A stretch of DNA of 32,000 nt from Promethearchaeota archaeon (GTDB lineage Archaea > Asgardarchaeota > Hermodarchaeia > Hermodarchaeales > Hermodarchaeaceae). The DNA lies in assembly GCA_048938295.1 (NCBI GenBank), contig JBHLMI010000003.1, positions 1-32,000 on the forward strand, written 5' to 3'. Shown here in pieces: positions 1 through 14,737 of the stretch; position 1 is the stretch's first letter; the number at the start of each line of letters is the position of its first letter. A program made the translations under genes and the position numbers. A model generated the notes under the pieces. The model saw only the letters and a list, made by a program, of their open reading frames with translations. It was not told the origin of the DNA and did not search any database.

Positions 1-143
1 TGAAAGAGGCATTCATTTGGGCTGCTGTGAAGGATAGTCGATCTGAAACCCCATGGTATAACGATAACGGAGACGGGGCCGGGTATAACGTTCTCCAGGT
101 TGTATATGGCGGCGCCTCATATGGTGATACCGTCTTTCTTTGA
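1..143 (+). CDS. 3' end of a gene entering from the left edge; possibly an extracellular C13/caspase-like peptidase-domain protein
   Basis: Frame 3 is open from the edge to TGA at 141-143 (KEAFIWAAVKDSRSETPWYNDNGDGAGYNVLQVVYGGASYGDTVFL*) and is followed by a hairpin. The family is only a recollection of the EAF..A..D...P.Y.DNGDG pattern. Confidence 0.5.
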   Translation, partial: KEAFIWAAVKDSRSETPWYNDNGDGAGYNVLQVVYGGASYGDTVFL

Positions 144-180: not shown

Positions 181-229
181 TCCATCATTTTCTTGTTCCA
201 TAAAAAATAACGAAGGTTCTCACACAATC

Positions 230-260
230 TGGATCTCCGAAACGCTTTTACTCACAAAAT
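230..260 (+). repeat. Array repeat copy: left arm type L1 + core TACTCACAAA (249-258)
   Basis: TGGATCTCCGAAACGCTTTTACTCACAAAAT is 27/31 identical to 14693-14723. Confidence 0.85.
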
Positions 261-459
261 AGGCTTCGTACCATCTCGCTGCTTCTAATAATAATCGAGT
301 TGAACTCCTCGGATAAAGAAGCCCTCTTTGCTCTTCAGACGCTTCCACGTGCTAGAAATGGAGTTTCGGCATTTATCGCAAGTTCAGATGATATAAGGCG
401 TTCCATTATCTTCCTTTTGACTGACTGAATGCATCATTAGGAATATGGATTCACTTTTG

Positions 460-474
460 AACTCAGGTTGAGTT
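460..474. promoter_or_regulatory. Candidate operator palindrome upstream of merA
   Basis: AACTCA-GGT-TGAGTT, 31 bp before the merA ATG. Confidence 0.35.
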
Positions 475-505
475 GTGGTGTCTTAAACTAGGGTGTGCTT
501 GATAA

Positions 506-1897
506 ATGTACGATTTGGTCATCTTAGGTGCAGGTTCAGCTGGTTTTGCTGCAGCAATAAAGGCATCAGAACTTGGAAAACAGTTTGCACTAATTGAACG
601 CGGTGCCCTTGGTGGAACCTGCGTGAATGTGGGATGTGTACCTACTAAATTTCTTCTCCGTGTGAGTGACTTTTATTATTCCATTCGGGATTATTCATTC
701 CGAGGTGTCAACGGGGGCAGCCCCGTATTAGATTTCGTTCAAGTAATGGACAAGAAAGATGAACTAGTGCAATTCATGAGAAAAAACAAATATGAAGATG
801 TCCTGAACCATCTATCTGGGGGTACCCTATTTCACGGTGAGGGTTCGTTCATCTCGAGAAATGAAGTGAAAGTCGGTGAACAGGTTCTTAGAGCGAAGAA
901 ATTCCTCATTGCCACAGGAGCCTCACCACACATCATCAGCATTAAAGGGATACAAAAGGCAAAACCGCTAACAAGTACTACGGCATTAGAACTGCAGCAG
1001 CTACCAGAATCCATGATTGTGATTGGAGGGCGTGCCTTAGGACTTGAATTTGCTCAATTATTTGCGCGATTGGGGACTAAAGTAACCATCCTGCAACGGA
1101 GTTCCCGTATACTCCCTGCTGATGAACCGGAAATCACACAGGTACTCACCGACATTCTACGCGATGAGGGTATCCAAATTCTCACAGGTGTAAAAATACT
1201 AGAGGTAATTAAGAAAGGCAAGTCCAGTATTGTGAAGTTTCGTATGGGTAGCAAGGATAGGGATATTGAAGCCGAACAGCTGCTAATGGCAACTGGGCGT
1301 AAGGCAAACATTGAACATCTGGGTTTGAAAAATGCTAGGGTAGAAACTGAGAAGGGATTCGTGAAGACAAACGAGTTCCTGCAAACCTCGAATCCCGATA
1401 TCTATGCGGCAGGCGATTGTGCCTCACAAGTAATGCTTGAACCACTAGCGGCAAAAATGGGAAATCTGGCAGTAAGGAATGCCTTTGAGAATGCACGGTT
1501 ATCAGTGAATTGGAAGACGATTCCCAGCGTTGTGTTTACGAATCCCCAGGTTGCTAGGGTTGGTTTTACTGATGAAGAGTACTCATGCATAATGCAAATG
1601 TGTACGTGCAGAACTATCCCATTAGCGCTGCTGCCAAAGGCACATATCATCGATGATACCCGTGGCGTTATCAAAATGGTAACTGACTCGCGAACACTGA
1701 AGATCGTCGGCGTTCACATTGTTTCTTCCGAGGCGATGGAGATGATACACGAAGCCACGCTAGCTGTCAAGTTTGGCTTAACCGTTGATGACATCATTGA
1801 AACAGTACACGTTTTCCCCACTATGTCTGAAGCCATAAAATTAGTCGCTCAATCTTTCAGAAAGGATGTTACAAAACTGAGTTGCTGTTCAGAATAA
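506..1897 (+). CDS. merA: Mercuric reductase, short form without the N-terminal metal-binding domain
   Basis: GAGSAG FAD motif, redox centre GGTCVNVGCVPTK, and C-terminal vicinal cysteines in DVTKLSCCSE, which is diagnostic of MerA among class I pyridine nucleotide-disulfide oxidoreductases. Confidence 0.85.
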   Translation: MYDLVILGAGSAGFAAAIKASELGKQFALIERGALGGTCVNVGCVPTKFLLRVSDFYYSIRDYSFRGVNGGSPVLDFVQVMDKKDELVQFMRKNKYEDVLNHLSGGTLFHGEGSFISRNEVKVGEQVLRAKKFLIATGASPHIISIKGIQKAKPLTSTTALELQQLPESMIVIGGRALGLEFAQLFARLGTKVTILQRSSRILPADEPEITQVLTDILRDEGIQILTGVKILEVIKKGKSSIVKFRMGSKDRDIEAEQLLMATGRKANIEHLGLKNARVETEKGFVKTNEFLQTSNPDIYAAGDCASQVMLEPLAAKMGNLAVRNAFENARLSVNWKTIPSVVFTNPQVARVGFTDEEYSCIMQMCTCRTIPLALLPKAHIIDDTRGVIKMVTDSRTLKIVGVHIVSSEAMEMIHEATLAVKFGLTVDDIIETVHVFPTMSEAIKLVAQSFRKDVTKLSCCSE

Positions 1898-1956
1898 CAG
1901 CAAAGGATAGGCTGTTTCTGAGTGTGAATTATAGCACGTATTAGAAACACTAACAT

Positions 1957-1989
1957 TTTTACTCACAAACCCAAGCCTTACTGAACTTT
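1957..1989 (+). repeat. Array repeat copy: core + right arm R1
   Basis: TTTTACTCACAAACCCAAGCCTTACTGAACTTT is 33/33 identical to 13399-13431. Confidence 0.95.
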
Positions 1990-2048
1990 ATTCTTCGATT
2001 CTAAATTACATCTGTCAATTGTAAGTAAATATTCGAAAATTTGTCTGT

Positions 2049-2489
2049 TTAAAGCAATGATTTGGTTTTGTCAGGAAATCCTTTGTATTCAATAACGCCG
2101 AGTTGTTGATAGAAATCCATCAAATCAAAAACCTGCGTTACCTTTTCGATGACTTTCCCATTAGCAATCCGATAAACGACTATACCTGTCGAGGTGAATT
2201 TCTTACCGGTGGGAGCTAGTCCGTGATATTCTCCAGTGTGGGTTCCCGTACTTTTAATCTGAAACCATACAGTATCCCCATCCGCGGTGATGTGGGTAAT
2301 TGTCCGTTGGACATCAGGAAACCCCTTGTATATCGTTTTTTCCATTTTTTTGTAAGCGTCTCTTCCCTGCAATTTCATTGGATGATCTACAAAATCAGGG
2401 GCGATAATTTCATCGATTAGAGTTTCATCCTTGGTATTGAAGGCTTTGGCTAATTTCTGAACAAGCGCTTTGTTCGCCTCTATAGACAT
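2049..2489 (-). CDS. SnoaL-like ester cyclase family protein (NTF2 fold)
   Basis: EANKALV start, FPD..TI..I.ADGD.VW and GTHTGEYHGLAPTGKK are typical of the family. Confidence 0.85.
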   Translation of the reverse strand: MSIEANKALVQKLAKAFNTKDETLIDEIIAPDFVDHPMKLQGRDAYKKMEKTIYKGFPDVQRTITHITADGDTVWFQIKSTGTHTGEYHGLAPTGKKFTSTGIVVYRIANGKVIEKVTQVFDLMDFYQQLGVIEYKGFPDKTKSLL

Positions 2490-2598
2490 TGGACATCATA
2501 CTCCGAGTGTAAACCTGTTCAACATGTGAAATGAACCCATTGGATTTTAAAGGTATCAATTTACTAGCGGTTATTCTAGTTTAGATGGAGTTGATGTC

Positions 2599-3018
2599 TT
2601 GCTGAATGAAACGAGCCCAGAAAAGAACGCGTTGTTGAAAACAATTGCAGATCTTGATCGAACCTTTTCCGAAAATCGTACTGAGGGCATGGGTAAGTTC
2701 TTTGCCCCGAATGCGTGGCTCATGTTTCCCAATATGGAAGACATCTTAGGTCGAGAATCAATTCAACAAACGTTTGCTAGCTTAATGGCAGAATATTCAA
2801 CGGATTCATTTCACCCAAACCGGGAATTGATCGACATCTATGGGCACAGGGCATGCACTTTGGGAAGTTTCATAGAAATACGCACACCCCTCAAAGAGGG
2901 GCCGAAAGAGAAGATATACGGACGTCTTCTGGAAATCTGGCAACGCTCCTCTAAGGGCAACTGGGAGATAATCCGTTTCATGACTGGAAGGTATTCTGAT
3001 TTGGAACTTATTGAATAA
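2599..3018 (+). CDS. DUF4440/YybH-like NTF2-fold protein
   Basis: 139 aa; FFAPNA..MFPN...I.GRESI and GRLLEIWQR...GNWEI patterns. Confidence 0.7.
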   Translation: MLNETSPEKNALLKTIADLDRTFSENRTEGMGKFFAPNAWLMFPNMEDILGRESIQQTFASLMAEYSTDSFHPNRELIDIYGHRACTLGSFIEIRTPLKEGPKEKIYGRLLEIWQRSSKGNWEIIRFMTGRYSDLELIE

Positions 3019-3021
3019 CTG

Positions 3022-3077
3022 GTTGTACGACCGAGGCCTTTTTACTCACAAACCCAAGCCTAACTGAACCTTTTTTT
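3022..3077 (+). repeat. Array repeat copy: left arm L2 + core (3043-3052) + R1
   Basis: 3022-3068 is 41/47 identical to 7686-7732. Confidence 0.95.
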
Positions 3078-3931
3078 CACATAGGTTTTGTCGTACCAGA
3101 TGTTAATAAGATGATAATGATTGCAGCAAATAGAAGTGAATCTATCAGGATTTCGAACAGCCCATGAATGATTCGAAGTAAAACGGGAAATGCTGGATTT
3201 GGCAAAAACATCGTGATGCTTGGCAAGTAGAGTGCAAACGCAAGCAGCAGGTATAGTTCTTTGGTTTCTACTTTGAGTGATACGAGAATAGGTAACAAGG
3301 CTAGAATGTAAAGAAATCCTCGTGATATCTCTACAACAAGGATCACCCATACTGGAGGAATTCTAAGCCCCGTCCCCATATCCAGGTAGAAGGGAAGAAC
3401 AATCGGGCTAATGAGGGTGCCGATGCCATAATAAATCACTAAATACAGGACTGCGGTCAACACAAACCGCCAGAGCCAGTCATACCACGGGCGTCCAGCG
3501 AAGTAACTTCTAATTTCAGTTCGTAACGAGCTATCTGTCGTATTGGGTGGAAACATAAAGGCAATGAAAAGGGCGTGTAGGAAACTGATAAGAAGCCCAA
3601 ACATCGCTGCTGCGAGAAGCAATGCTTCAGTTAAAATCGTGGTGAATAGGTAGCCTTCAATCATGGTGGTAAACCATTGAATGATGAAGAGCAGAAACCA
3701 ACCAACCCCAATACGCACCAAACGAGAATAATACAAATGTGAGAAAATTAAGCCAAATACGAAACCAATAGCAGTACCAATGACAAAATCGATGATCACT
3801 TGGTGTGGAAGAAAGGGACCTGCCATCGTTAGTGTCAGGTCTGTCAGGACAAACAACACCGCAAAGACAATCACTCGAAGCAGGAAACTCGTATCTAAGG
3901 TTGCTTTTAGCTCCATTACCCTAACATCCAA
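3077..3931 (-). CDS. Multi-pass membrane protein of unknown function (start may be ATG at 3916)
   Basis: 284-aa ORF with about 8 hydrophobic segments; its stop abuts the repeat at 3077. Confidence 0.75.
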   Translation of the reverse strand: MDVRVMELKATLDTSFLLRVIVFAVLFVLTDLTLTMAGPFLPHQVIIDFVIGTAIGFVFGLIFSHLYYSRLVRIGVGWFLLFIIQWFTTMIEGYLFTTILTEALLLAAAMFGLLISFLHALFIAFMFPPNTTDSSLRTEIRSYFAGRPWYDWLWRFVLTAVLYLVIYYGIGTLISPIVLPFYLDMGTGLRIPPVWVILVVEISRGFLYILALLPILVSLKVETKELYLLLAFALYLPSITMFLPNPAFPVLLRIIHGLFEILIDSLLFAAIIIILLTSGTTKPM

Positions 3932-4014
3932 TAGATTGAACGCTTATAGTCGAATGAACTTGAATAAAAGATGCTCGAATAATAATTCTAGGGATAACTA
4001 TTTGGTTTTTTCAT

Positions 4015-4054
4015 AACGCTTTTTATTCACAGAATCTGGAAACGCTCACATTAT
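4015..4054 (+). repeat. Variant-type array repeat (type B), copy 1
   Basis: TCACAGAATCTGGAAACGCTCACATTAT (4027-4054) is 26/28 identical to 4550-4577. The preceding AACGCTTTTTATTCACAGAAT resembles AACGCTTTTACTCACAAAAT at 241-260. Confidence 0.8.
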
Positions 4055-4174
4055 ATAGCGAAGGGTTTCTACAGGAAAAAGAATATTGTATCTAGTTACT
4101 TGTGAAGGATCTATGTAATATTATTGGTAAACATATTGAAAGAATTGGATGAGCAAAATTCTCAACTTAGACTT

Positions 4175-4297
4175 CTAATTTGTACCCATTCGTTGCTTTT
4201 GGGTCCATTTCCATTTTTGCTTTCGTGCTCTCTCGTCTTCTTCTTCAACTACTCTTTTCTTATCCGATTCTGTTTTTTTATCTTTTTTATCGGTCAT
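4175..4297 (-). CDS. 40-aa highly charged small protein, below the ORF-track cutoff
   Basis: MTDKKDKKTESDKKRVVEEEDERARKQKWKWTQKQRMGTN*. RBS-like GTGAGG precedes the ATG and a TATA-like TTATATTA lies on the minus strand at 4338-4345. Confidence 0.55.
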   Translation of the reverse strand: MTDKKDKKTESDKKRVVEEEDERARKQKWKWTQKQRMGTN

Positions 4298-4535
4298 TGT
4301 ATCAATTCCTCACTTTTATGGGGTCGACCATAAACGCTAATATAAGTATGTCTCATTGCCGATTTGAAATAGGATTTTATTTATTATCAAGAACATTTCT
4401 CCTTGGTTTTACGGAATTAAAATCACAATCGAATGCCCGTATGATATTAGTAGCATTTTTATTCAGTAAATGCGAGTGTTTCCCTATACTTTCTTTTATT
4501 TAGTTCAAAGACTGTTTATGTTCAGATTTTAGCGA

Positions 4536-4577
4536 AACGCTAATATTGCTCACAGAATTAGGAAACGCTCACATTAT
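4536..4577 (+). repeat. Variant-type array repeat (type B), copy 2
   Basis: AACGCTAATATTGCTCACAGAATTAGGAAACGCTCACATTAT; see the copy at 4015-4054. Confidence 0.8.
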
Positions 4578-4677
4578 CTGGAATAGAATATTATGACATT
4601 TTTAGGCCAGTAAATTGCCTTTTGATAGATGTTTGGGGTTAAAGCTTGGGATCCTTAACCACGCCAACTACATTTTT

Positions 4678-5064
4678 TTAAAAGGAATAACGTCTGTATC
4701 TCGAGGTAGCGGTTACAGGTTTTCCGGTTGCCATTTCGAAACCTCGAGAACCCAATTTTGCTACCCAAGACCATATCGTTAGAAACGCATCTTGAGCAGG
4801 TGTTTCTTTTATGTTTGAGCCGATGCCGATTTCTGGGTTTTTCAGGATGCGTTTAATTTGATCAGAGCGGATGGGTTTGGTCTGTTGTTGAAACCAGTTG
4901 TCAATGAGGTGGAAGCGATCGTATGATCGGGGCATGGTGCGGTTTGGGTTATTGTAGGGCTGCATGGAAGGCGAAAAGAAGTGGTTGGTGATTATTCCAA
5001 TCCCGTCTTGTGGATAATGAACAGAGATATTCTGTTGAGCTGCTTCAATTATGGCAATGTCTAG
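4678..5064 (-). pseudogene. 5'-truncated C45/acyl-CoA:6-APA acyltransferase-like (Ntn-hydrolase) C-terminal fragment
   Basis: The frame is open from 5064 with no proper start: DIAIIEA...TNHF...SYDRF...TIWSWVAKL...MATGKP...SRY, matching the C-terminal half of C45 peptidases as I recall them. Confidence 0.55.
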
Positions 5065-5210
5065 TTATTTGTAGATATCCATGTGATCTAATTCTTATCC
5101 AACCTTTTCTTTGAACTTACCATCAACAATGTCTTAAACGAAAAAGACCAGTGAAAGAATTTTTCCACTTGCAAGGTCCATCCATAGCATTCGTCAATGA
5201 GTATTCATTG
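5056..5210 (-). pseudogene. Decayed paralogue of the SnoaL-like gene at 2049-2489
   Basis: IVDGKFKEKVG*ELDHMDIYK*LDI aligns ungapped to IANGKVIEKVTQVFDLMDFYQQLGV with 11/25 identities. Both TAA stops (5065-5067, 5095-5097) sit at Gln positions; frameshifts lie further upstream. Confidence 0.75.
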
Positions 5211-5279
5211 CCCTTAAGTAGAATGTTGGGGTATTCTATTAAAGTACATGCAAGCCATTGAATAAGGAAGGTTTTACGA

Positions 5280-6299
5280 ATGTCTTCTTCAAAGATTTTG
5301 GGATACGCAGCGAGTGCAGTGGGACAAGAACTCGAGCCATTCACCTACGAGCCACCCAAACTGGGGGATCATGATGTCCGGGTCTCGGTAACACACTGCG
5401 GTTTGTGCCATTCTGATATTCAGGCCGTCGACGACTACTACGGAATAACCACGTTTCCCTTTGTCCCCGGTCATGAGATCGTCGGGTATGTGTCGGATGT
5501 GGGCGGTGCGGTATCCGGTCTGAAGGAAGGTGACCGGGTCGGCATCGGATGGCAAGGGCGTTCGTGCATGCAATGTGAATGGTGCGTGCAAGGCGAAGAG
5601 CAACTCTGCATGGACATTGTCAAATCCGGGACATGGGTTCCATATGGGGGCTTCTCGTCCTCTGTTCTTGTTGATAGCCGTTTTGCCTACCCACTGCCTG
5701 ACGCCATGCCCTCTGAGGTAGGCGCGGTGCTCATGTGCGCCGGAATAGCAGTATACTCCCCACTTCGATCGTACGCAACGCGACCCATGCAGAAAATTGG
5801 CATCATCGGCGTGGGAGGGCTAGGCCACCTTGCATTACAGTTCGCTCACGCTCTGGACTATGAAGTAACCGCCTTTTCCTCCTCTCCTAAGAAGAGAGAA
5901 CAGGCGTTTGCCTTTGGTGCGGATCACTTCATCGTTTTAGACGACCAGACCAACTTGCAGCAGTTTGAGTTCAGCTTCGACTTGCTACTATGCACCTCCA
6001 CTGGCAAAATCAACTGGGAGCCCCTGTTGAGCTCCTTGAAGAAAAAAGGAAAACTGGTCCTTGTTGGCTTTCCAGAGTTAGCGCTCAATCCAACTGACCT
6101 CGTAGCACACCAGCTGTCGATCACTGGTTCGTTCCTTGGCAATCGAGCCACAATGCGTGAGATGCTATCCTTTTCACAGATGCACAGCATCGCGCCTAAG
6201 TTGGAGTTAATGCCTATGACTGAAGTAAACAAAGCGATTCGGAAGGTGAGAAAGAACAAAGCACGCTACCGAATCGTCCTAGTCAACGACATTGGCTAA
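5280..6299 (+). CDS. Zn-dependent NAD(P) alcohol dehydrogenase (cinnamyl alcohol dehydrogenase/Ahr-like)
   Basis: CGLCHSD, GHE, structural Zn CxxCxxCxxxxxxxC, GVGGLG Rossmann motif and C-terminal ARYRIVL. Confidence 0.92.
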   Translation: MSSSKILGYAASAVGQELEPFTYEPPKLGDHDVRVSVTHCGLCHSDIQAVDDYYGITTFPFVPGHEIVGYVSDVGGAVSGLKEGDRVGIGWQGRSCMQCEWCVQGEEQLCMDIVKSGTWVPYGGFSSSVLVDSRFAYPLPDAMPSEVGAVLMCAGIAVYSPLRSYATRPMQKIGIIGVGGLGHLALQFAHALDYEVTAFSSSPKKREQAFAFGADHFIVLDDQTNLQQFEFSFDLLLCTSTGKINWEPLLSSLKKKGKLVLVGFPELALNPTDLVAHQLSITGSFLGNRATMREMLSFSQMHSIAPKLELMPMTEVNKAIRKVRKNKARYRIVLVNDIG

Positions 6300-6310
6300 G
6301 TGGAAGCCTA

Positions 6311-6360
6311 AACATCCGATACGCTTCTACTCACAAATCCAAGCCTTACCTATTTTTTTT
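6311..6360 (+). repeat. Array repeat copy: L1 + core (6328-6337) + R1-like arm
   Basis: AACATCCGATACGCTTCTACTCACAAATCCAAGCCTTACCTATTTTTTTT. Confidence 0.9.
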
Positions 6361-6588
6361 AAAAAAATGGAGAAGTAACTTGAAAAATCGGTTTACGGAT
6401 CGATTTCTCAAAAATTCATGGCGTGGATAGGCCCACTACAATTGTTCTCATTACTTTGTAGGCGTCATTCTTTTTGCAAATGGTTGACAGGGAATGATTG
6501 CCTCATTCAAAAATAATTAAACAAAATTGGACAAAATCAATGCGCCGTATGCGATCCTTAAAGCATACGCCATTGGAGGTTTTACTTA

Positions 6589-7542
6589 GTGAAGCACTTG
6601 TTTCAATATTGGCGCCATCTACGCACAGTTAGTGCTTTATATGAGGAAGGGAAGTATCAAGAAACTATAGATTTTCTAAAAGAAGTAGCTACAGACTTTC
6701 CTGACTTCAAACCTGAAATTTATTACACTCAGATGGCGGCAGCAATAAAACTCGACAAATACGACCTGTTCTTCGAGTTACTCAACGAGATCCTAGATGC
6801 TGGCGGCTGGTATTCTGAAACCATTTTGCGTGAAAGCCCCGCCTTCAAACCCCTACAAGGCATGTCTGAATTTGAAAGACTCGTCCCCATCAACGTAGAA
6901 CGTGCCAATCAAGCATCAAAGCACCATACTAACTTTACCATGTTCCCAGAAACCACCAGCGCTTCTATGCCCCTAATGCTAGCTCTCCACGCCCAAGCCA
7001 GCGTCATCAACGAAGAATACCAGGCATGGAAAACAGTCGGTGACCACGGCTACATACTTGGAATGCCCCAAACCATTAACAGGTACTGGTCAGGAATCGC
7101 TACTGGGTACTGGCCAGACTATGAAACATCAATTCACCAAATCAAAGCCTTTGTCGATACAATCAACCTAAACAAAACACTTGACCTAGAACACTCTATT
7201 GCTGGCGGGCTTTCAATGGGAGGTGATCTCGCCATCAGGCTCGCACTCACAGGAACAATACCTGTATGTGGCTTCATCGCTGTTTCCCCCGGTGGTCCAT
7301 GGATGAACGAACCTGAAAAATGGAAACCCCTAATAGACGATGTCAGACGTCACGACATCAAAGGCATCATCATCCGTGGCAAAGAAGACCAAGCAATCCC
7401 GCGAAAATACACCCAAACACTCACGAACATGTTCAACAATAGCGGTATCCCATGCCAATTCCTCGAATATCCAAAACTCGGTCACTGGTACCCTCCCAAC
7501 TTCGCTGACACCATAGCGAATTTCATAAACAATATTAAATAA
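6589..7542 (+). CDS. Alpha/beta hydrolase (phospholipase/carboxylesterase-like) with a helical TPR-like N-terminus
   Basis: Nucleophile elbow GLSMGG, EDQAI and LGHWYP near the C-terminus; RBS GGAGG before the GTG start. Confidence 0.75.
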   Translation: MKHLFQYWRHLRTVSALYEEGKYQETIDFLKEVATDFPDFKPEIYYTQMAAAIKLDKYDLFFELLNEILDAGGWYSETILRESPAFKPLQGMSEFERLVPINVERANQASKHHTNFTMFPETTSASMPLMLALHAQASVINEEYQAWKTVGDHGYILGMPQTINRYWSGIATGYWPDYETSIHQIKAFVDTINLNKTLDLEHSIAGGLSMGGDLAIRLALTGTIPVCGFIAVSPGGPWMNEPEKWKPLIDDVRRHDIKGIIIRGKEDQAIPRKYTQTLTNMFNNSGIPCQFLEYPKLGHWYPPNFADTIANFINNIK

Positions 7543-7685
7543 CCACTTTCCCAAGCAAGCACAAAAAGAGTTTTTTTCTTTCACCCACAATACCCGCGTG
7601 ATCAGCAACGCCTTTGCCCCTATTTACCTCTGTTAGTTGACGGCTATAATTGGTGAGTCCACAAGTTCTGGATATCCAATCAATC

Positions 7686-7738
7686 GTTGTACGACCGACG
7701 CCTATTTACTCACAAAGCCAAGCCATACCGAATTTTTT
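7686..7738 (+). repeat. Array repeat copy: L2 + core (7707-7716) + R1-like arm
   Basis: 41/47 identical to 3022-3068. An L1-like TCTGGATATCC also lies just upstream (~7667-7677). Confidence 0.92.
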
Positions 7739-7816
7739 CTTTTTTCATTCATAGTCAAGGATTTTAAACCGTATTGCCACTTAATGCAAAAATTAGGTTA
7801 AATCCAAAAAAAGGAG

Positions 7817-8182
7817 ATGACAAATAAATTGAGCAATACTGAAACTTCGTTAATGCTGGTAAAGGTTGGCACTTGGCTGCAGATTCCATTCTCATTCTTT
7901 ATAATCGCTATTATGGTCTGGCTGTATTGGCTTCTTTGGCCGATTTTGATTGATCCAATATTTTGGGTAGCTTTTGGAGGATGGACAATGGCCCTCCTAG
8001 GGTTTGAAATCTTTGCAGGTATATTTGGACTAGGTCTCGCAATTCTTTGGTTTCGATGGCGACACGATATACCAAACCACAAGCAGGCCTTGGTAAAGAC
8101 CGGAATTGTCGGTATGATTTTCACAGGAACGGTCCCCGGCTTACTTGTGCTAATTGGGGCCGTCATCCACCCAACGAAGTAA
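7817..8182 (+). CDS. Small membrane protein of unknown function
   Basis: 121 aa with 3 hydrophobic segments; GGAG directly before the ATG. Confidence 0.7.
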   Translation: MTNKLSNTETSLMLVKVGTWLQIPFSFFIIAIMVWLYWLLWPILIDPIFWVAFGGWTMALLGFEIFAGIFGLGLAILWFRWRHDIPNHKQALVKTGIVGMIFTGTVPGLLVLIGAVIHPTK

Positions 8183-8249
8183 AAGCGAAACCACTTTATG
8201 ATAATGCACAAAAGTCTAGGCGGATACAAAATTATTGAGGATATGAGTT

Positions 8250-8456
8250 ATGCCAGTTGTTCACGTCCATGTATGGAAAGGATTCTCGGAAGAAAAGATT
8301 AATGAGATAATTACGGGAATAACGAATGTATTTATCAAACTCGGTATCCCCTCACGTGCAGTAGAAGTAATTATTCATGAAATCCCCAAAACACATTGGG
8401 GAGTTGATGGCAAACCAGCAACACAATCGCTGAAGGATTGGCACCCACCTGAATGA
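8250..8456 (+). CDS. 4-oxalocrotonate tautomerase family protein
   Basis: 68 aa with catalytic Pro after Met (MPVVHV), V.VIIHEIPKTHWGVDG motif, and RBS GAGG. Confidence 0.88.
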   Translation: MPVVHVHVWKGFSEEKINEIITGITNVFIKLGIPSRAVEVIIHEIPKTHWGVDGKPATQSLKDWHPPE

Positions 8457-8549
8457 CCTTTTTTTGTCACTACTCGTAACTCACCTTTGCTCACAAACAC
8501 CATTACATAGTGATGTCTACTCAATGAATTAACCATTTCCCAACTTGTG

Positions 8550-8600
8550 AACACCTGATATGCTGTTACTCTCAAACCTAAACATTAATGGAATTTTATT
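8550..8600 (+). repeat. Degenerate array repeat copy (L1-like + core TACTCTCAAA + R1-like); a partial core also lies at 8486-8500
   Basis: 8566-8600 aligns to 1959-1992 at 28/35 (one gap). Left arm AACACCTGATATGCTG resembles AACATCCGATACGCTT at 6311. Confidence 0.7.
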
Positions 8601-8807
8601 ACCTGTGTGAAGCTGTTTCAATAAATTATTGCGTGTTTTTATTCGACTGGTGTTAATACTATAAAACGGTTCTTTCATCTAACTGGCTTTGTCAATTCAG
8701 AATGAAATTGATCTAAGGCAAAGTGAAATTCTCATTGTGGACTATAACTTGATTGGGCGTTGGTGTATTTCACCCAATAATTGAAACAAGACCTTATGCA
8801 CTACTAC

Positions 8808-9386
8808 TTATTTTCGGAGCGCTTGAACGAAGTAGATGAAGGCTAAAAGATAGACGATGATCAACCCTGCAAATCGTAGTTGAGTCCAAATTGGTAGTGG
8901 TGATTCGTACCCTAAGAACCCAATTATGAGATAGAGCACACTCCAAATCATGAAAATGATTCCAGTTATCGTCGCAATAATTCCAATTTCGTCACGTGTT
9001 ATCCAGATTGAGAAGCCAATCACTAGAAAAATAATCAGATAGAATATCCAAAAGATCCAACTTAGATAGAGATTTGCTGTAGCAGCGTCTAGAAAGGTTA
9101 GTAAGAGCGGAAACAGAATATTAAATTCTAGCAAAATTACGAGTAGTTGCAGAATAAGAAGTAATATCACGGCGATGAGAGGTATCTTTCTACCGGTTTC
9201 TCGGGAGATACCGATTATTGCAATGGCAACGAGAATGAGTGCAAGAATAGTAACCCACTCTAATATTGGAACGGATGGGACAGCGAATAGAAGCGAATAT
9301 AGATTAAATGCAAACACTATGACAACAAGAAGACTTCCAATCGCACCGAGTGCAAATAAAACATTGTTCGTAGAATCTTTTCCCAT
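8808..9386 (-). CDS. Multi-pass membrane protein (start placed at ATG 9386 rather than 9482)
   Basis: GAGGTGG RBS precedes ATG at 9386 (MGKDSTNN...); about 6 hydrophobic segments. Confidence 0.75.
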   Translation of the reverse strand: MGKDSTNNVLFALGAIGSLLVVIVFAFNLYSLLFAVPSVPILEWVTILALILVAIAIIGISRETGRKIPLIAVILLLILQLLVILLEFNILFPLLLTFLDAATANLYLSWIFWIFYLIIFLVIGFSIWITRDEIGIIATITGIIFMIWSVLYLIIGFLGYESPLPIWTQLRFAGLIIVYLLAFIYFVQALRK

Positions 9387-9524
9387 TGTATGCCACCTCG
9401 ACACAATTGTAATGGTCGAGAAAATATTATTGAATCGAACTCCTATAAAACGCTTTAAACAATATATACTCAAACCTAGCATAATTGTAAAGCACTTAGT
9501 GACACTAGCATAAGGAGAGGAGGT

Positions 9525-9875
9525 CTAGCCAAGACGAGGATGAAACATAACAACTTTGTTCTTCTCATCGACTCTCAATATCTGGCCCATATGACTCAAA
9601 TCAACCATTATGGTGTTATCGACATTTGGAATAGAGCCAGATCGTAGTTTAGGGGCCTTAGAGCTGGTTGGAATAAGCGCGAGATTGTGTTCGTTTGCAA
9701 GTTGGACCAGCTGTTGAATTTCTTGGCTAGTCTGGAGATATGCAATTAACTGGGGGCGTCTTCCATGGAAGATATTTTGGTTATTTGTAAACAAATCAAG
9801 AGCTTCTTCTTGGGTTGAGATGTTTTCCTGACCAACAATTTGTGTGATTTCTTCACTAAGATTTTTGGCAGGCAA
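9525..9875 (-). pseudogene. 3'-truncated FAD-binding oxidoreductase (FAD_binding_4 / VAO-PCMH family) N-terminal fragment
   Basis: IVGQENIS, P.LIAYLQT.QEIQQLVQLANEHNLALIP and IMVDLSHMGQIL.VDEKN; stops just where the EPGV motif is expected (FHPRLG*). AAGGAG RBS precedes TTG at 9875, giving about 116 aa of a normally much longer protein. Confidence 0.7.
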
Positions 9876-10000
9876 TAGGCAAATCTCCTTGAGTAAAGAG
9901 TTGCGTACACCTTGAGAGAACATATTAAGACTTGATGCTTCAACTATTGTATTCACTCAAAGTAGAAAGTCTATTGATTTCAGTCTCTGGGTGAGAAATT

Positions 10001-11710
10001 GTGCCTAAAATAATGCAGATTGCTTCCCTCGTCTCTCCGTTATTCCGATTAAAGAATTATCTAGGAAGAGCCATTGCTCAACCGATACGACGTCATTTCG
10101 CACCAAAGCCTTCTGATAAAACATATGAACTAGGCAAGTGGAACGATGAGGCAAATGTACAGACGAAGTATGGTTTAGTTCGTGGGTTTTCAGATAAGGG
10201 TACATGGTGTTGGAAAGGAATTCCCTATGGCACTCCTCCAGTGGGAGAATTAAGATGGAAGGCACCCCTTGATCCTATCCCTTGGCTCGGAACGCGCAAG
10301 ACAACTAGATTTGGTAACTCTGCAGCACAGGTTATGCCCATCATGGGTTCAACAGGTTCAGAGGATTGTCTTTACCTTAACATATGGCGTCCTAAAAGCT
10401 CGGAAACGGAACTACCGGTTTACTTGTATATTCATGGGGGAGGCAATTCCATTGGCTCATCAGCCACGCCAACCTACTACGGTAATACCGTGGCTGATAA
10501 ATCGAACTTGATGTATATTTCTGTCAATTACCGACTTGGTGCAATGGGTTGGTTCAAGCACCCTGCTGTGACGGGTTCTGGTTCTCCAGAGGATCAGAGT
10601 GGGAATTATGGAACCTTAGACTTGGTGAAGTCCTTAGAGTGGGTCAAGGAGAATATCAGAGCTTTTGGGGGCAACCCAAATAATGTCACAATTGCGGGTG
10701 AGTCTGGAGGCGCGTTCAATGTACTTTCACTCTTGGTGTCTCCCTCTGCAAAGGGACTATTCCATCGAGCCGTTGTTGAAAGTGGTATGACATCAATTTG
10801 TAGTATTGAGGAAGCAACAGCCCAGAGTGAACAACTTCTGGCTGCCCTTCTTATTAGTGATCGAAAAGTTGCGAATGAAGATGAGGCTGTAAGGTACATC
10901 AGCGAAATGCATGATGATGAGATTAATACCTATCTACGTTCGAAATCAGCCTTCACAATTACGAAGAACATTCCTACCATGGTTTTGGGAATGGTACAAT
11001 GGCGATCTATTATTGCTGATGGTATAGTTCTCCCTGCAGAGGGTTATAGTGTTTTTTCTTCTGGCGAATGGGCAAATATGGTGCCCGTGATTATAGGTTG
11101 CACAAAGGATGAAATGAAACTCTTTGGTCAATTTATGGAAGACCTTCCTCAGAGCTCCAGGATTTGGGAGTATCAGTCCATGCTCTGGCGTGCAAACGGC
11201 GTCCATAAACCAGCAGCCGAAATGACCTCTAAAAGCAAAATCCCTGTTTATGTTTACAGGTTTGACTGGGGAAGCCCTGATGAAAAAGGCGTGAGTGTCC
11301 TACCAAAAAACAAAGGTCACGAACTAGGGGCTTACCATGGCTCTGAATTGCCCTTCTTCTTGGGAACAAGTGGATCCGATTTTGCTTTTCTGATAGGAAA
11401 GATGCACACAAAAGAAAACCAGATCGGTCGTGAAAAACTGAAAGACTTGTGCATGAACTATCTGGCGAATTTTGCGAGAACAGGGAATCCTAATAACATT
11501 GACTTACCAAATTGGCCTACTTGGGATAGCACTGAAGGAAAAGTCAAGGTTCTTGTCCTTGATGCAGATTTCAACGAATTGAGACTTTCATACTCAAGTG
11601 AAAAAATCACAGTTCAAAATGTTCTAGCCCTCGTTAATTCTGAGCTCGAAGAACCCGAACGAGGACAGGTATTGACATTGCTCGAAAATTTCATTGCTTT
11701 TAGAAAATAG
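10001..11710 (+). CDS. Type-B carboxylesterase/lipase (para-nitrobenzyl esterase-like)
   Basis: WKGIPYG, LRWKAP, SEDCLYLNIW, HGGG, GESGG (Ser), GCTKDE (Glu) and HGSEL (His). Confidence 0.93.
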   Translation: MPKIMQIASLVSPLFRLKNYLGRAIAQPIRRHFAPKPSDKTYELGKWNDEANVQTKYGLVRGFSDKGTWCWKGIPYGTPPVGELRWKAPLDPIPWLGTRKTTRFGNSAAQVMPIMGSTGSEDCLYLNIWRPKSSETELPVYLYIHGGGNSIGSSATPTYYGNTVADKSNLMYISVNYRLGAMGWFKHPAVTGSGSPEDQSGNYGTLDLVKSLEWVKENIRAFGGNPNNVTIAGESGGAFNVLSLLVSPSAKGLFHRAVVESGMTSICSIEEATAQSEQLLAALLISDRKVANEDEAVRYISEMHDDEINTYLRSKSAFTITKNIPTMVLGMVQWRSIIADGIVLPAEGYSVFSSGEWANMVPVIIGCTKDEMKLFGQFMEDLPQSSRIWEYQSMLWRANGVHKPAAEMTSKSKIPVYVYRFDWGSPDEKGVSVLPKNKGHELGAYHGSELPFFLGTSGSDFAFLIGKMHTKENQIGREKLKDLCMNYLANFARTGNPNNIDLPNWPTWDSTEGKVKVLVLDADFNELRLSYSSEKITVQNVLALVNSELEEPERGQVLTLLENFIAFRK

Positions 11711-12029
11711 ATTAGCTTCAATTCTGTTCTTTTTTATTCAACCTATGCAATTTGCTTGATGCGGTTTGAGACACTCATACCGTATTTATTTTGTGCTAAT
11801 TCCCTGAATACGACTAACGGGCCTCTAATCATTTGATCTTGTATACATTATTACGTGTTTTTCCTTTTGTAGAAAGAGACAACTATGGTCCCAAACATTT
11901 CTTTAAAACCTTTAATTAACATGCTAGTGTTGAATGGGAAATATCACGTTGGAAACCCATATTTCTGATTGTGTACATCTGTAACATTTTAGGCAAAAAT
12001 CCATAAACACCGAATCATTTACAACTTGC

Positions 12030-12578
12030 ATGCAATTCTATCCTCAAGATGCGGCTGTTCCAAAAGAACTGCGAACGGAAGAATTCCATATACGTCCTCT
12101 TAGAGTGAGTGATGCAAAGATTGACTATGCAGCAGTGATGGATAGTAAATCCATGCTACGGATAATGAGTCAGAGTACATGGCCATCAGATGATTTTACC
12201 TTAGAGATGAATAGAAAAGACCTAGAGGAACATGAACAAGAACACGATGAACGCATTGCATTCACCTACACTGTTCTGGATCCCACCGAATGCATTAGCT
12301 TAGGGTGTGTTTATATCAGGAACTTGACGGAAGGTCCGATGAAAGGCGACCATGTGGCTCAGCTTCGTTTTTGGATCCGTCAGCCGTACTTAGATCAAGA
12401 TTTAGATAAACTGCTGTTGAAGCGCCTAATTGACTGGTTCAAAAACGACTGGGCCTTTTCACATGTTATCTTTAGTGTTGCTGATGAAGATAAAAGACAA
12501 ATTCAGCTTGCAACCGAGTTGGGTCTACACCTCGTCCATGCATACGGAAACCGATGGTCAGAATTTCTCATCAAATGA
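12030..12578 (+). CDS. GNAT-family (RimJ/RimL-like) acetyltransferase
   Basis: IRPL..SDA..DYAAVM, FTYTVLDP....LGCVYI and FWIRQ patterns. Confidence 0.7.
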   Translation: MQFYPQDAAVPKELRTEEFHIRPLRVSDAKIDYAAVMDSKSMLRIMSQSTWPSDDFTLEMNRKDLEEHEQEHDERIAFTYTVLDPTECISLGCVYIRNLTEGPMKGDHVAQLRFWIRQPYLDQDLDKLLLKRLIDWFKNDWAFSHVIFSVADEDKRQIQLATELGLHLVHAYGNRWSEFLIK

Positions 12579-12624
12579 CTCTACCTTGACATGCTCCAGT
12601 TGTAGAATCAGTAACAAGGATATA

Positions 12625-13284
12625 CTAAATTATTGAAGCAATCATTAGCCAGCCACCTAAGACTATTTCAAATATGAAAATTAACAGACCTCCAATAGTC
12701 CACAGGATTTTAAAGTCGGGTTTTAGAAGTTGTATCCCGTTGCCCAAGCCATAGAGAATGCTGGCCACAATTCCAAACCATCCAATAATTACTGGTACAA
12801 CACCATAAATTACGAAAAGGACCGAGTATGTGATCGTACCAATAGAGAACAAGATCTGTGCAATTCTGAAACTAGTATTTTTTGATTTGAGGATGTTAAG
12901 GCCTAAATCAATTAACTCGTTTTTTTCAACACCACTATTACCTGAGTATTGTCTTGCTATATTGAAAAGCCCCCAGTAATTTCTTTTATTATAAATTTGA
13001 ATCAAGCCTTCTCCTATTCGAAAGACTGTCCAAACCACTGCGAGTATTATGTTATAGGGACTAAAAGTAAAAAACAACAAGACAGCAAGTGCAATTATGC
13101 TACCATGCTCTATGAGGATTAATACGACGCTAATTTTGAATTTCTTTGGATCATTGTTAATCTGTTGTAGTTTAGTGTCTGCGTCCAAATCACTAAATGT
13201 TTCATAACCAAATCTTACACTTGCAAGGTTTGTAATTATAATCAACCAAAAGAAAAAACCGGATAAGAACATCTGAATAATCAT
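12625..13284 (-). CDS. DUF4386-like membrane protein
   Basis: 219 aa, hydrophobic; FRIGEG, P.IIGWFG and FE..LGGWL patterns. Confidence 0.6.
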   Translation of the reverse strand: MIIQMFLSGFFFWLIIITNLASVRFGYETFSDLDADTKLQQINNDPKKFKISVVLILIEHGSIIALAVLLFFTFSPYNIILAVVWTVFRIGEGLIQIYNKRNYWGLFNIARQYSGNSGVEKNELIDLGLNILKSKNTSFRIAQILFSIGTITYSVLFVIYGVVPVIIGWFGIVASILYGLGNGIQLLKPDFKILWTIGGLLIFIFEIVLGGWLMIASII

Positions 13285-13398
13285 AAAATCACATTTTTAG
13301 AAATAAACAGAACGCTAACTTGTTGCATTTTATTAGAATATAAGGCTTAACTTCTTGAACTGGGTATTAACAGAGGTTATTTGGTCATAGCATAATGC

Positions 13399-13431
13399 TT
13401 TTACTCACAAACCCAAGCCTTACTGAACTTT
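13399..13431 (+). repeat. Array repeat copy: core (13402-13411) + R1
   Basis: 33/33 identical to 1957-1989. Confidence 0.95.
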
Positions 13432-13648
13432 TCTTGTAAGTATGTAAAAACGATGCTAAAAATTGGAGAGGTTTATTCACCTGTTTTGTAATAATACGAA
13501 GTTTTGTATTTTCTTAATTTTCAGTCCTTTGCCAATCCTGAATGAAATCTTTCTCAGGAAAAGTGAAATACAATTTGTGAAAATGACTAACATGTGGTGC
13601 CTGTGTAATCTGTCCAATGATTGATATGAAACTTCGTGCTAATGCTGT

Positions 13649-13775
13649 TTAGCTTTGGAACGCTTTGAGGAAATAAACGAATGTAAAATTGATAGACGAT
13701 AACCAACCTTGCGAACCTTAGTCGAGTCAAAATTGAAGCTGGTAACACGATTACATAAGAGCTAATGAGAGGTCA
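13649..13775 (-). pseudogene. 3' remnant of a paralogue of the membrane-protein gene at 8808-9386
   Basis: 13691-13735 is 37/45 identical to 8849-8893. It translates ILTRLRFARLVIVY...(frameshift) TFVYFLKAFQS* versus IWTQLRFAGLIIVYLLAFIYFVQALRK*. Confidence 0.8.
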
Positions 13776-13799
13776 TACTGTGGGAACTATTATGTGAGG

Positions 13800-14618
13800 T
13801 TAACGGGGAAAGGCATAGGATTGGTAGTATTCAAGATTAACAATAATGCAATTAGTTATGGAAGATGCATAGTTAGCAAAGAATATTTGTCTACTCAGCA
13901 CTGTGTAATGAATGGGAACAAAATAACGGGGTTGGATAGTCTGCAACGCTTCCAGCACTTGATCACCACTATTGCAATCGATGCATAATAATGCGACATC
14001 AATTGTTCCTGTTAGCTGGGAGTACTCTCCGATATTTCTGGAATCGCCAGAATGGAAAATAGTGAATCCTCCAACATCAATGATATAACTAGTCCAATTG
14101 TTCTCTCGAGGATGCGTCGTTTGAATTGATTCCTCAGCAGGATAATAAGCATAGAAAGCGGTGACATTGATAGCCCCGAATTCTAACCCATCCCCGGGAT
14201 TGATACCAATTCCCTCATAAAGGGCAATCGCATCCGACATGCTCTCTGGAAACACATTTACTGTTCCCTCTTTTTGCAGCAAGTCAATGGAAGTGGTCTG
14301 ATAATGATCAAAATGAGGGTGGGTAATCAAAATCACATCAGCGGGTAATGCTTCAAAACTCTCAGGAAGATTATAGGGATCGATATAGATACGTAATCCA
14401 TAGGCTTCAATCTTCACCCCAGCAATGTCGAGTAGTTGAAACTGCACTGAATTTACATTCATCAACATTAACGCGGAGAGAGGGACAACCACCGCGATAA
14501 CAGCAATAACTCCGACACTAATAATGATCTTAGATCGTTTTTCTCGTACCATGGTTTTAGTTCTAATTTGGCTTACTATATCTACTTGGAATCCGGTCAG
14601 TTCGGATTCTCGCATCAT
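13800..14618 (-). CDS. Membrane-anchored MBL-fold metallohydrolase (UlaG-like); start is probably ATG at 14552
   Basis: IYIDP, ITHPHFDH (HxHxDH), FHSGD and PIHY; one N-terminal TM helix after MVREKRSK. Confidence 0.85.
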   Translation of the reverse strand: MMRESELTGFQVDIVSQIRTKTMVREKRSKIIISVGVIAVIAVVVPLSALMLMNVNSVQFQLLDIAGVKIEAYGLRIYIDPYNLPESFEALPADVILITHPHFDHYQTTSIDLLQKEGTVNVFPESMSDAIALYEGIGINPGDGLEFGAINVTAFYAYYPAEESIQTTHPRENNWTSYIIDVGGFTIFHSGDSRNIGEYSQLTGTIDVALLCIDCNSGDQVLEALQTIQPRYFVPIHYTVLSRQIFFANYASSITNCIIVNLEYYQSYAFPR

Positions 14619-14692
14619 ATCCTAAATTCTGGTAAAAAACCGGAACCGATTAGTTCGGGATAAGGATTGAGAAGGTATTTTCAACAACATAA

Positions 14693-14723
14693 TGGACATC
14701 CGATACCCTTTTACTCACAAAAT
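14693..14723 (+). repeat. Last array repeat copy: L1 + core (14712-14721) running directly into the htrA leader
   Basis: TGGACATCCGATACCCTTTTACTCACAAAAT is 27/31 identical to 230-260. I saw no further exact core in 14.8-32 kb. Confidence 0.88.
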
Positions 14724-14737
14724 GTGACTAATTCAGT

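Follow-up and report, generated by a model that had tools for sequence, protein, structure and literature searches.

A chromosomal cassette array at the htrA locus of Hermodarchaeota that may arise by site-specific recombination

Introduction

To our knowledge, integrons are the only well-understood platform for capturing genes cassette by cassette, and they are defined by the integrase IntI together with folded attC sites. Integrative elements are also well known to accrete in tandem at a single att site. In Acinetobacter plasmids, pdif modules rely for their movement on an Xer recombinase of the host (XerC/XerD), not on a dedicated integrase, and their sites are 28-bp palindromes with an 11-6-11 layout that alternate in orientation. 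The archaeal dif site also has the 11-6-11 layout (PMC2958812), and integrons have been reported in archaea, with enrichment in Asgard genomes (Ghaly et al. 2022, PMC9668308).

Here, we describe an array of gene cassettes upstream of htrA in Hermodarchaeota. Like sedentary chromosomal integrons and CALINs (clusters of attC sites without an integrase), the array has co-oriented sites, small cassettes of accessory genes, and a fixed place in the chromosome; its content and order vary between relatives, and its sites are more alike within a lineage. As in CALINs, there is no integrase beside it. In contrast to integrons, its site is a linear succession of arm, core, and arm, with no imperfect palindrome, single-strand hairpin, or AAC/GTT triplets; exchange appears to take place in a 10-nt core; and many units have two to five genes in both orientations. 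Also unlike integrons, the genome encodes no IntI, and the primary target appears to be the promoter or operator of a gene instead of an attI site beside intI.

Compared to elements that accrete by attB/attP recombination (elements at tRNA genes, or IMEX such as CTX and TLC at dif), the array has the same types of junctions: B-O-B', B-O-P', P-O-B', and P-O-P' are all present, where O is the core and B and P are the arms of the target and of the cassettes, and all copies are direct. However, its units do not carry genes for an integrase, replication, or virions, and they can be as small as one gene. The enzyme of the array would have to act in trans. As with pdif modules, the units are bounded by short sites, and XerA is the sole conserved recombinase here. 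In contrast to pdif sites, the sites of the array are ~65 nt long, asymmetric, and all direct, and there are several unrelated cores in the genome.

Results

An oriented site that is confined to one locus

We analyzed the first 32,000 nucleotides of a contig from a Hermodarchaeota genome (the window; Table 1). The 10-mer TACTCACAAA occurs seven times in the window, always on the + strand (0.10 copies were expected in a shuffled window, and none of 100 shuffles reached seven). It is the core of an oriented site of ~65 nt that comprises a left arm, the core, a right arm, and a T-run. An HMM of the site, trained on six copies, gave six full-site matches in the window (E values of 3e-15 to 9e-11) and two partial matches that cover only the left arm and the core (230–258 and 14692–14721). 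A preliminary description of the window had reported the seven exact copies, a degenerate full-length copy at 8550–8600, variant copies at 4027 and 4550, 33 identical bases shared by the copies at 1960 and 13402, and no copy in the remaining 17 kb. All of these observations held up: the HMM recovers the degenerate copy, there is no copy in 14.8–32 kb, and the two variants are genuine members of the family with a second type of right arm, which we found again in at least eight related genomes.

There are 11 sites in total when both variants are included, along with a single copy on C34, the adjoining contig. The copy on C34 (124–187, minus strand, at the start of the contig) is the sole additional extended site that the HMM identified in the 2.5-Mb genome. 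C34 abuts the left end of the window, as the window begins with the last 46 residues of a gene whose 5' site is on C34. The bare 10-mer occurs another 14 times in the genome, always without the arms. In this genome-wide scan, which had been proposed as a check, the extended site was restricted to one locus and a single orientation. The copies do not show the genome-wide spread in both orientations that is typical of MITE or REP elements (one locus, one orientation, and no palindrome).

The core is unchanged in 38 of 61 sites, and its position 9 is polymorphic (A/G). Between unrelated sites, left arms are ~45% identical and right arms are ~66% identical; among type-1 sites, ~36 nt (-3 to +33) are near-identical. 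(Contigs end at identical tracts of 27–33 nt, which is an assembler effect and has no value as evidence.)

As first described, the units contain unrelated accessory genes in mixed orientation, although 70–73% of the neighbors of sites are co-oriented with the site. Several units carry two to five genes, with both orientations represented. The fragment of F11 at the start of the window is 98% identical to F11 of L021 (by tblastn), and the F11-type left arm of site 1 precedes type-1 right arms in L014 and L028.

Table 1. Sites and genes of the array in the window.
Feature	Position	Strand	Details
Peptidase C13-like cassette gene F11, 3' end (last 46 aa)	3..140	+	Cut by contig start; Pfam
Site 1, F11-type left arm and core	217..260	+	Core 249-258; atypical right side belongs to next unit
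Pyridine nucleotide-disulphide oxidoreductase (cargo)	506..1897	+	
Site 2, full	1928..1999	+	Core 1960-1969; HMM 1931-1997; divergent left arm
SnoaL and DUF4440/SnoaL-like cassette	2049..3018	mixed	SnoaL 2049-2489 (-); DUF4440/SnoaL-like 2599-3018 (+)
Site 3, full	3011..3082	+	Core 3043-3052; HMM 3013-3079
284-aa protein (cargo)	3077..3931	-	No Pfam family
Type-2 site	3997..4081	+	Core variant TATTCACAGA at 4024; second right-arm type
107-aa protein (cargo)	4180..4503	+	Function unknown
Type-2 site	4520..4598	+	Core variant TGCTCACAGA at 4547
95-aa ORF and zinc alcohol dehydrogenase (ADH) (cargo)	4678..6299	mixed	95-aa ORF (-); ADH 5280-6299 (+)
Full site	6296..6367	+	Core 6328-6337; HMM 6298-6361; overlaps ADH stop codon
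Alpha/beta hydrolase (cargo)	6589..7542	+	
Full site	7675..7746	+	Core 7707-7716; HMM 7678-7742
143-aa ORF and 4-oxalocrotonate tautomerase-like gene (cargo)	7798..8456	mixed	143-aa ORF (-); tautomerase-like 8250-8456 (+)
Degenerate full site	8535..8606	+	Core TACTCTCAAA at 8567; HMM 8540-8605
Fused multi-gene unit	8808..13284	mixed	224-aa ORF (-); FAD_binding_4 fragment (-); carboxylesterase 10001-11710 (+); GNAT (+); DUF4386 (-)
Full site	13370..13441	+	Core 13402-13411; HMM 13374-13440
Metallo-beta-lactamase-fold hydrolase (cargo)	13800..14618	-	
Terminal hybrid site P-O-B'	14680..14737	+	Core 14712-14721; HMM 14692-14721
htrA (trypsin-like protease with PDZ domain)	14738..15685	+	Conserved right anchor of the array

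Tests of the identity of the site

The preliminary description had also held that these sites lack the architecture of attC, and indeed no site has a hairpin or a RYYYAAC/GTTRRRY pair. For seven of eight sites, folding is no stronger than for shuffled sequences; the other (6293–6368) is weakly better (z = -2.0), by pairing of its flanks. No RYYYAAC...GTTRRRY pair overlaps a site, and the entire window has four such pairs (versus 6.9 in shuffles). A canonical integron, or a CALIN with unusually divergent attC sites, might be suspected given the types of cargo, which resemble those of integrons, and given that archaeal integrons are enriched in Asgards (PMC9668308). Yet besides the missing consensus pairs and the near absence of attC-like folding, there is no IntI, and the only integrase-family match nearby is a full-length XerA orthologue. 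The structure tests have already refuted this reading, and we give it almost no credence.

Several other identities were rejected. For a structured RNA or a tRNA relic, there was no Rfam match at E ≤ 1 and no match from ARAGORN. For a coding relic, a phage-like metagenome contig (L037) has two genes whose N-termini match the core and right arm as read on the minus strand (..VRLGFVS..). This motif is in no gene of the window's genome, and the reading frames are broken at every site; we treated the match as a coincidence. A 21-nt match within an ABC-type operon from a Sphaerochaetaceae MAG (L043, L048) was taken as chance. The sites do not have the 28-bp 11-6-11 layout of Xer-type sites, as the internal sites are asymmetric and the native site at htrA is 9-3-9. 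Tyrosine or serine recombinases normally need inverted symmetry, so its absence from the internal sites counts against site-specific recombination.

Cassettes are permuted between related genomes

We found co-oriented arrays with the same site and the same conserved flanks in 9 of 14 congeneric Hermodarchaeota genomes, with two to six sites each. The right flank is htrA-CAAX-... (the CAAX protease gene follows htrA), and the left flank is NfeD-MFS-TIM barrel-HEAT-FKBP; each is conserved where it was assembled. The carboxylesterase, ADH, hydrolase, SnoaL pair, and other cassettes are shared with relatives, and we observed them in permuted order. The best-sampled cassette, the alpha/beta hydrolase, is present in six genomes and has five different neighbors on each side. 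The ADH cassette has four and five different neighbors on its two sides, the carboxylesterase cassette has three and two, and the SnoaL pair (which is also found in G012 and G014, beside other neighbors) has three. In four relatives, a site stands before the carboxylesterase; the fused unit of the window lacks it. In a minor contig of one metagenome run, site 3 is joined straight to the carboxylesterase cassette. The arrays are identical across samples of one species, so their turnover is slow, which counts against the site-specific reading.

A test set beforehand asked if the gain and loss of units coincide precisely with the core, and the outcome was positive: cassettes are permuted between species, and the observed breakpoints are within the site. 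For example, G010 and G013 have one site between the F4 gene and the carboxylesterase, and in G011 the same place is occupied by a two-gene cassette of 4.1 kb that is flanked by sites on both sides; the outer arms are unchanged. This is a clean cassette indel. More broadly, across the congeners, the left arm travels with the upstream gene and the right arm travels with the downstream gene. If two sites share only the upstream gene, then their identity is 0.5–0.9 up to position -4 and is at background after +34; if they share only the downstream gene, then the profile is reversed. The right arm of the F11 cassette is divergent, and the cassette retains it in combination with three left arms that are unrelated to each other. 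For exchanges between two type-1 sites, the breakpoint can be resolved only to a tract of 36 nt in which all such sites are alike, which weakens the site-specific reading.

Hybrid junctions at the htrA promoter

In four relatives (G006, G010, G012, and G014), the htrA promoter is intact and includes a palindrome of which the core is part (B-O-B'). This native site is a 9-3-9 palindrome, with the core as its left half. Both types of hybrid junction were observed: B-O-P' is present in G004, G005, G006, and G011, and P-O-B' is the last site in the window, which has a cassette-type left arm, the core, and the native htrA leader and ends 17 nt before the htrA ATG. (In G003, G007, G008, and G018, the contig ends at the 5' end of htrA or within 100 nt of it, so no cassette-free locus could be read.) The native module, made up of B and the core, abuts at least six different right sides, and these partners share only ~10–11 nt. 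The set of B-O-B', B-O-P', and P-O-B' is the attB x attP pattern of site-specific integration. An operator-like palindrome with the core as one half also precedes two other genes. We had guessed that the gene behind the second of the core palindromes (C32:105826) encodes a small heat-shock protein, but Pfam gave no support for this.

The main rival to site-specific recombination is that the site is a conserved intergenic element (such as a T-run terminator plus an operator half-site or promoter), and that homologous recombination, gene conversion, or template switching among its copies, including DNA exchange between related species, causes the shuffling incidentally, without any dedicated recombinase. 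The palindromes before two other genes give a non-recombinational reason for the core to be conserved, and the ~36 nt of near-identity among type-1 sites, along with the 33-bp identical pair, may suffice for rare exchange. However, just 10–11 nt are common to the junctions of module B (with its six dissimilar right sides) and the reciprocal P-O-B'. Ordinary homologous recombination needs a longer match than this, and still one and the same point has been used again and again. The divergent right arm of F11 and the restriction of all copies to one orientation and one locus also argue against it. Furthermore, neither a plain terminator nor a plain promoter fits, as the site has no hairpin and its distance to the downstream gene start varies from 27 to 427 nt. 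This rival also has the advantages that no recombinase was found and that a sequence-independent mechanism easily explains arrays with unrelated repeats in one genome (see below). Overall, we consider it to be unlikely, but not so unlikely that it can be set aside.

The attB/attL/attR logic could also be that of integrative elements (proviruses or plasmids) that piled up and decayed: their own integrases would have acted at the htrA operator, and the integrase and most other genes would later have been lost; tandem accretion at a single att site is established behavior for such elements. But the units are just 0.07–5 kb and contain ordinary metabolic genes, and we saw no remnant of an integrase in ~120 kb of arrays. 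Also, intact small units recur in other orders across species, which independent decay would not yield. We view this scenario as very unlikely.

Search for the recombinase

The array has no match to PF00589, and neither do the 20 kb to its left or the 18 kb to its right. The preliminary description had suggested that the recombinase might be encoded to the left of the window; this was not borne out, as there is none in 20 kb of contig C34, and none was identified elsewhere. The window's genome has two matches to PF00589: an orthologue of XerA (C32:33154-34095; a full-length match to 4a8e, 1e-52) and a strain-specific integrase of 443 aa on another contig (C33). We did not find the 443-aa integrase in 20 relatives, which rules it out as the enzyme of an array that occurs across the genus. 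The XerA orthologue is present, once per genome, in 12 of the 15 genomes from the genus (a thirteenth has a weaker Xer-sized match), and it is the only conserved canonical recombinase in the genus. No serine recombinase was found in any of the 15 genomes, and the window's own genome has no IS110, Y1-HUH, or Cas1 enzymes.

Using Pfam, we found no recombinase among ~80 proteins in or around the arrays of 10 genomes. Similarly, a Pfam scan of the larger ORFs in the arrays and their flanks turned up no element-encoded integrase (many small ORFs were outside of the scan). The window's genome also carries arrays with unrelated cores, such as TTCGAAGAC on contig C66, which a single sequence-specific enzyme hardly fits. 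Four different arrays of this genome have no flanking protein in common.

Discussion

On balance, and with moderate confidence, we favor the explanation that this is a chromosomal cassette array made by site-specific recombination, with an enzyme that remains to be identified. The preliminary description had proposed a cassette-accumulation system with an att site that is not attC, and our results support this, except that the involvement of a recombinase is unshown.

Under the explanation that we favor, recombination would be conservative and specific to the 10-nt core TACTCACAAA. The original target would be in the htrA promoter, downstream of a TATA-like box and ahead of the start codon (B-O-B'). 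We infer that the intermediates are circular cassettes with one complete site (left arm P, core O, and right arm P'), which would integrate at the core to give B-O-P' on the left and P-O-B' beside htrA. Later rounds of integration, excision, and re-integration at any of the sites could then produce a co-oriented array in which each cassette begins (5') with a right arm and finishes (3') with a left arm. The T-rich end of the left arm may substitute for the TATA box of htrA, which the insertion would displace; this too is an inference, as is the enzyme itself, which would work in trans.

A broader proposal, which we consider possible rather than probable, is that Hermodarchaeota capture genes at multiple loci. 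Each locus would have its own ~60-nt sites that mimic the target (the htrA promoter, or the 3' ends of actin and hydrogenase genes), so that each insertion restores the promoter or tail of the host gene. Such a system might be run in trans by XerA acting on non-dif sites or by an unrecognized recombinase, which might be guided by homology or RNA.

The array yields the outcome of an integron, with mobile and reshuffled accessory cassettes at a fixed locus, via another kind of site and with no recognizable integrase. The locus should be useful for experiments: its sequences directly show an unoccupied type of target, both hybrid junctions, and many cassette sites, all of which could be synthesized as substrates. 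The Asgard archaea are the archaeal group that is closest to eukaryotes, and this locus makes it possible to test how they acquire and reshuffle foreign metabolic genes and whether the housekeeping Xer or an unknown recombinase is responsible.

A repeated site that is not attC

The preliminary description had read the first 14.7 kb of the window as an integron-like array of unrelated accessory genes, delimited by a non-attC repeat. The repeat, TACTCACAAA, does occur seven times in the window (versus 0.1 expected from shuffles), each time on the + strand and never beyond the first 14.7 kb. Alignment and repeat finding reveal a longer element around TACTCACAAA: a left arm of roughly 20–30 nt, which comes in two related flavours, precedes this 10-nt core, and a right arm of roughly 17 nt and then a T-run follow it. 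An HMM that we made from six copies recovered six full sites in the window, as well as two copies reduced to left arm and core. Across the whole 2.5-Mb genome, the HMM found a single further copy, on contig C34. The bare 10-mer core has 14 more genomic occurrences, all without arms. The core is exact in 38 of 61 sites. At least eight relatives have one or two copies per genome of the type-2 right arm seen in the variant copies.

When folded as single strands, seven of eight copies were no better than shuffled sequence; Rfam and tRNA searches with the site were empty; and, as first claimed, no RYYYAAC...GTTRRRY pair overlaps any site. On these results, attC, a structured RNA, and a tRNA-derived att site are all ruled out. 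Integrons of archaea are enriched in Asgard genomes and are described with canonical folded attC sites and IntI (PMC9668308). Aloposons and other Asgard mobile elements are large, integrate at tRNA genes, and are unrelated to this array (PMC8813620). A literature search for comparable arrays found no description. Core plus right arm also match, on the opposite strand, the first 11 codons of two paralogous genes in L037 (a phage-like metagenome contig with a Mom-family gene); we judged this match coincidental and left it without explanation.

Locations of the sites and related features (window coordinates unless a contig or locus is named)
Feature	Location	Remarks
Left arm and core only	230-258	from HMM
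Left arm and core only	14692-14721	from HMM
Variant copies	4027; 4550	G at core position 9; type-2 right arm
Further full-genome copy	C34:124-187	minus strand
Reciprocal junction (P-O-B')	14680-14737	cassette-type left arm, core, native htrA leader; stops 17 nt before htrA ATG
Core palindrome	G000:C32:105788-105820	just upstream of a 223-aa gene without a Pfam family
Core palindrome	G000:C26:26791-26809	intergenic
End of peptidase C13-like gene	3-140	final 46 residues
~210-nt segment, two copies	8687-8893; 13527-13735	~120 nt downstream of sites 8567 and 13402; 69% identity
FAD_binding_4 fragment	9525-9956	minus strand; adjoins carboxylesterase
Carboxylesterase 5' flank	9950-10000	similarity to usual flank begins only ~50 nt before start codon
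Second array of G006 (L018)	G006:C39:24000-43999	between peptide-binding-protein genes and HdrA/MvhD-like cluster
Two cores 69 nt apart	L018, reverse complement 8945-9023	enclose type-2 right arm and short hairpin
L037 paralogues	L037:6218-6245; 6568-6597
XerA orthologue	18 kb right of htrA	full-length
443-aa tyrosine integrase	G000:C33:7134-8465	adjoins two ORFs of unknown function near contig start

Cassettes are permuted among relatives

The genes between sites in the window are accessory enzymes unrelated to one another, and the gene families bear out that part of the preliminary description: a disulphide oxidoreductase, two SnoaL-like proteins, a zinc ADH, an alpha/beta hydrolase, a tautomerase, a carboxylesterase, a GNAT, a DUF4386 protein, an MBL-fold hydrolase, and several ORFs without a family. 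The relatives' arrays, which we fetched and mapped for sites and ORF families, add a peptidase C13, PNPOx, an ICMT/PEMT-like methyltransferase, an SBF transporter with ArsR, flavodoxin, DinB, and large TPR proteins.

With a pattern search allowing two mismatches, 9 of 14 congeneric genomes had clustered, co-oriented copies of the site; a one-mismatch search of 301 Asgard genomes gave essentially no match outside the genus. Comparing the htrA loci (htrA is the protease gene at the array's right end) showed that the relatives keep the right flank (htrA, a CAAX protease, a Ras-like GTPase, and others) and the left flank (NfeD, MFS, TIM-barrel, HEAT, and FKBP), with the same cassettes in differing order between them. 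Across a site, the hydrolase cassette has five different partners before it and five after, the ADH cassette five and four, and the carboxylesterase cassette two and three; the SnoaL pair has three different preceding partners. In G010 and G013, one site separates F4 (a 530-aa gene) from the carboxylesterase; G011 has a 4.1-kb cassette of two genes between them, flanked by a site on either side, and the outer arms are unchanged. This is a clean indel.

The window completes the peptidase C13-like gene, whose customary 5' site is the copy on C34. Thus C34, read as its reverse complement, adjoins C32 (the contig whose first 32 kb are the window) across a gap of about 1.1 kb, and the array begins on C34. 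Contigs of four other genomes (G003:C10, G007:C18, G008:C88, and G018:C56) stop at most 100 nt from the htrA 5' end or inside it, which suggests that breaks at this array are a regular feature of assemblies.

The ~210-nt segment spans the final 30 codons of a 224-aa minus-strand ORF, so the cassette past site 13402 opens with a decayed 3' end of that gene. The site that precedes the carboxylesterase in four relatives is replaced in the window. The second array of G006, at another locus, has the same site family and also carries htrA promoter module B (described below), so the family is not strictly tied to htrA; the type-2 right arm and short hairpin between its two close cores look like a gene-free mini-cassette.

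The stretch is present in four sediment metagenome runs (from one study), solely as assembled contigs, which break at identical 27–33-nt tracts (an assembler effect). One minor contig (depth 4 versus 12) links site 3 to the carboxylesterase cassette, skipping 6.9 kb; this different order comes from a strain or species that co-occurs, and we count it as a weak hint. In same-species samples the arrays are identical, so turnover is slow on that scale.

The exchange point and the htrA promoter

Site pairs with only the upstream gene in common have 0.5–0.9 identity per position through -4 and reach background past +34; pairs with only the downstream gene in common show the reverse. Type-1 sites are all alike from -3 to +33, so this interval is the finest placement possible for exchanges between them. 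A G at core position 9 invariably accompanies the type-2 right arm, which places the exchange left of position 9, at least for those sites.

In G006, G010, G012, and G014, htrA retains a ~125-nt promoter module (B) that ends in a TATA-like box; the core comes next, and then the core's inverted copy. Core and inverted copy form a 9-3-9 palindrome 10–15 nt before the htrA ATG (the archaeal dif, in contrast, is an 11-6-11 palindrome; PMC2958812). Elsewhere, module B and the core are joined to at least five other right sides (type-1 arms, a type-2 arm, the peptidase cassette's divergent arm, and two sequences that are unique), and the window holds the reciprocal junction. The unlike partners at these junctions have only the core in common (~10–11 nt).

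The native site, the two kinds of hybrid junction, and the complete sites inside the array together make up the classical pattern of conservative site-specific integration. Circles would integrate at attB, with further integration and excision at any copy, and this explains the direct sites, the confinement to one locus, and the core being the most conserved part. Since insertion would take place between the htrA start codon and its TATA-like box, a cassette that enters there must bring a promoter to replace the native one. Left arms finish in a T-rich stretch where the native box would sit, from which we infer, without other support, that they are conserved for this role. Palindromes TACTCACA..TGTGAGTA on C32 and C26, outside the window, are similar to the relatives' native site at htrA; the core is therefore likely to be the half-site of a transcription-factor operator common to a small regulon.

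Candidate recombinases

The preliminary description placed the recombinase elsewhere, and we saw no such gene within the arrays of ten genomes or next to them. Of the two integrase-family genes in the window's genome, one is a XerA orthologue whose position is syntenic in G012 and G014; most genomes of the genus have a single copy. The other, the 443-aa integrase, was not found in 20 relatives; this strain-specific gene probably belongs to an integrated element. Searches of the 15 genus genomes found no serine recombinase, and IS110, Y1-HUH, and Cas1 were not found in the window's genome.

Alternatively, cassettes might be exchanged by homologous recombination between the conserved repeats. 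Other arrays in the same genome have unrelated repeats (core TTCGAAGAC on C66, and actin-tail repeats on C18), and no protein is common to the flanks of four such arrays. Several unrelated cores are hard to reconcile with one conserved recombinase; this is the main support for homologous recombination and the main difficulty for a simple sequence-specific model. However, junctions with only ~10 nt in common have been used repeatedly, which argues against homologous recombination. Overall, the repeat is confirmed as observed, and the data support the preliminary reading, an integron-like cassette array whose sites are not attC and which an unknown recombinase serves in trans.
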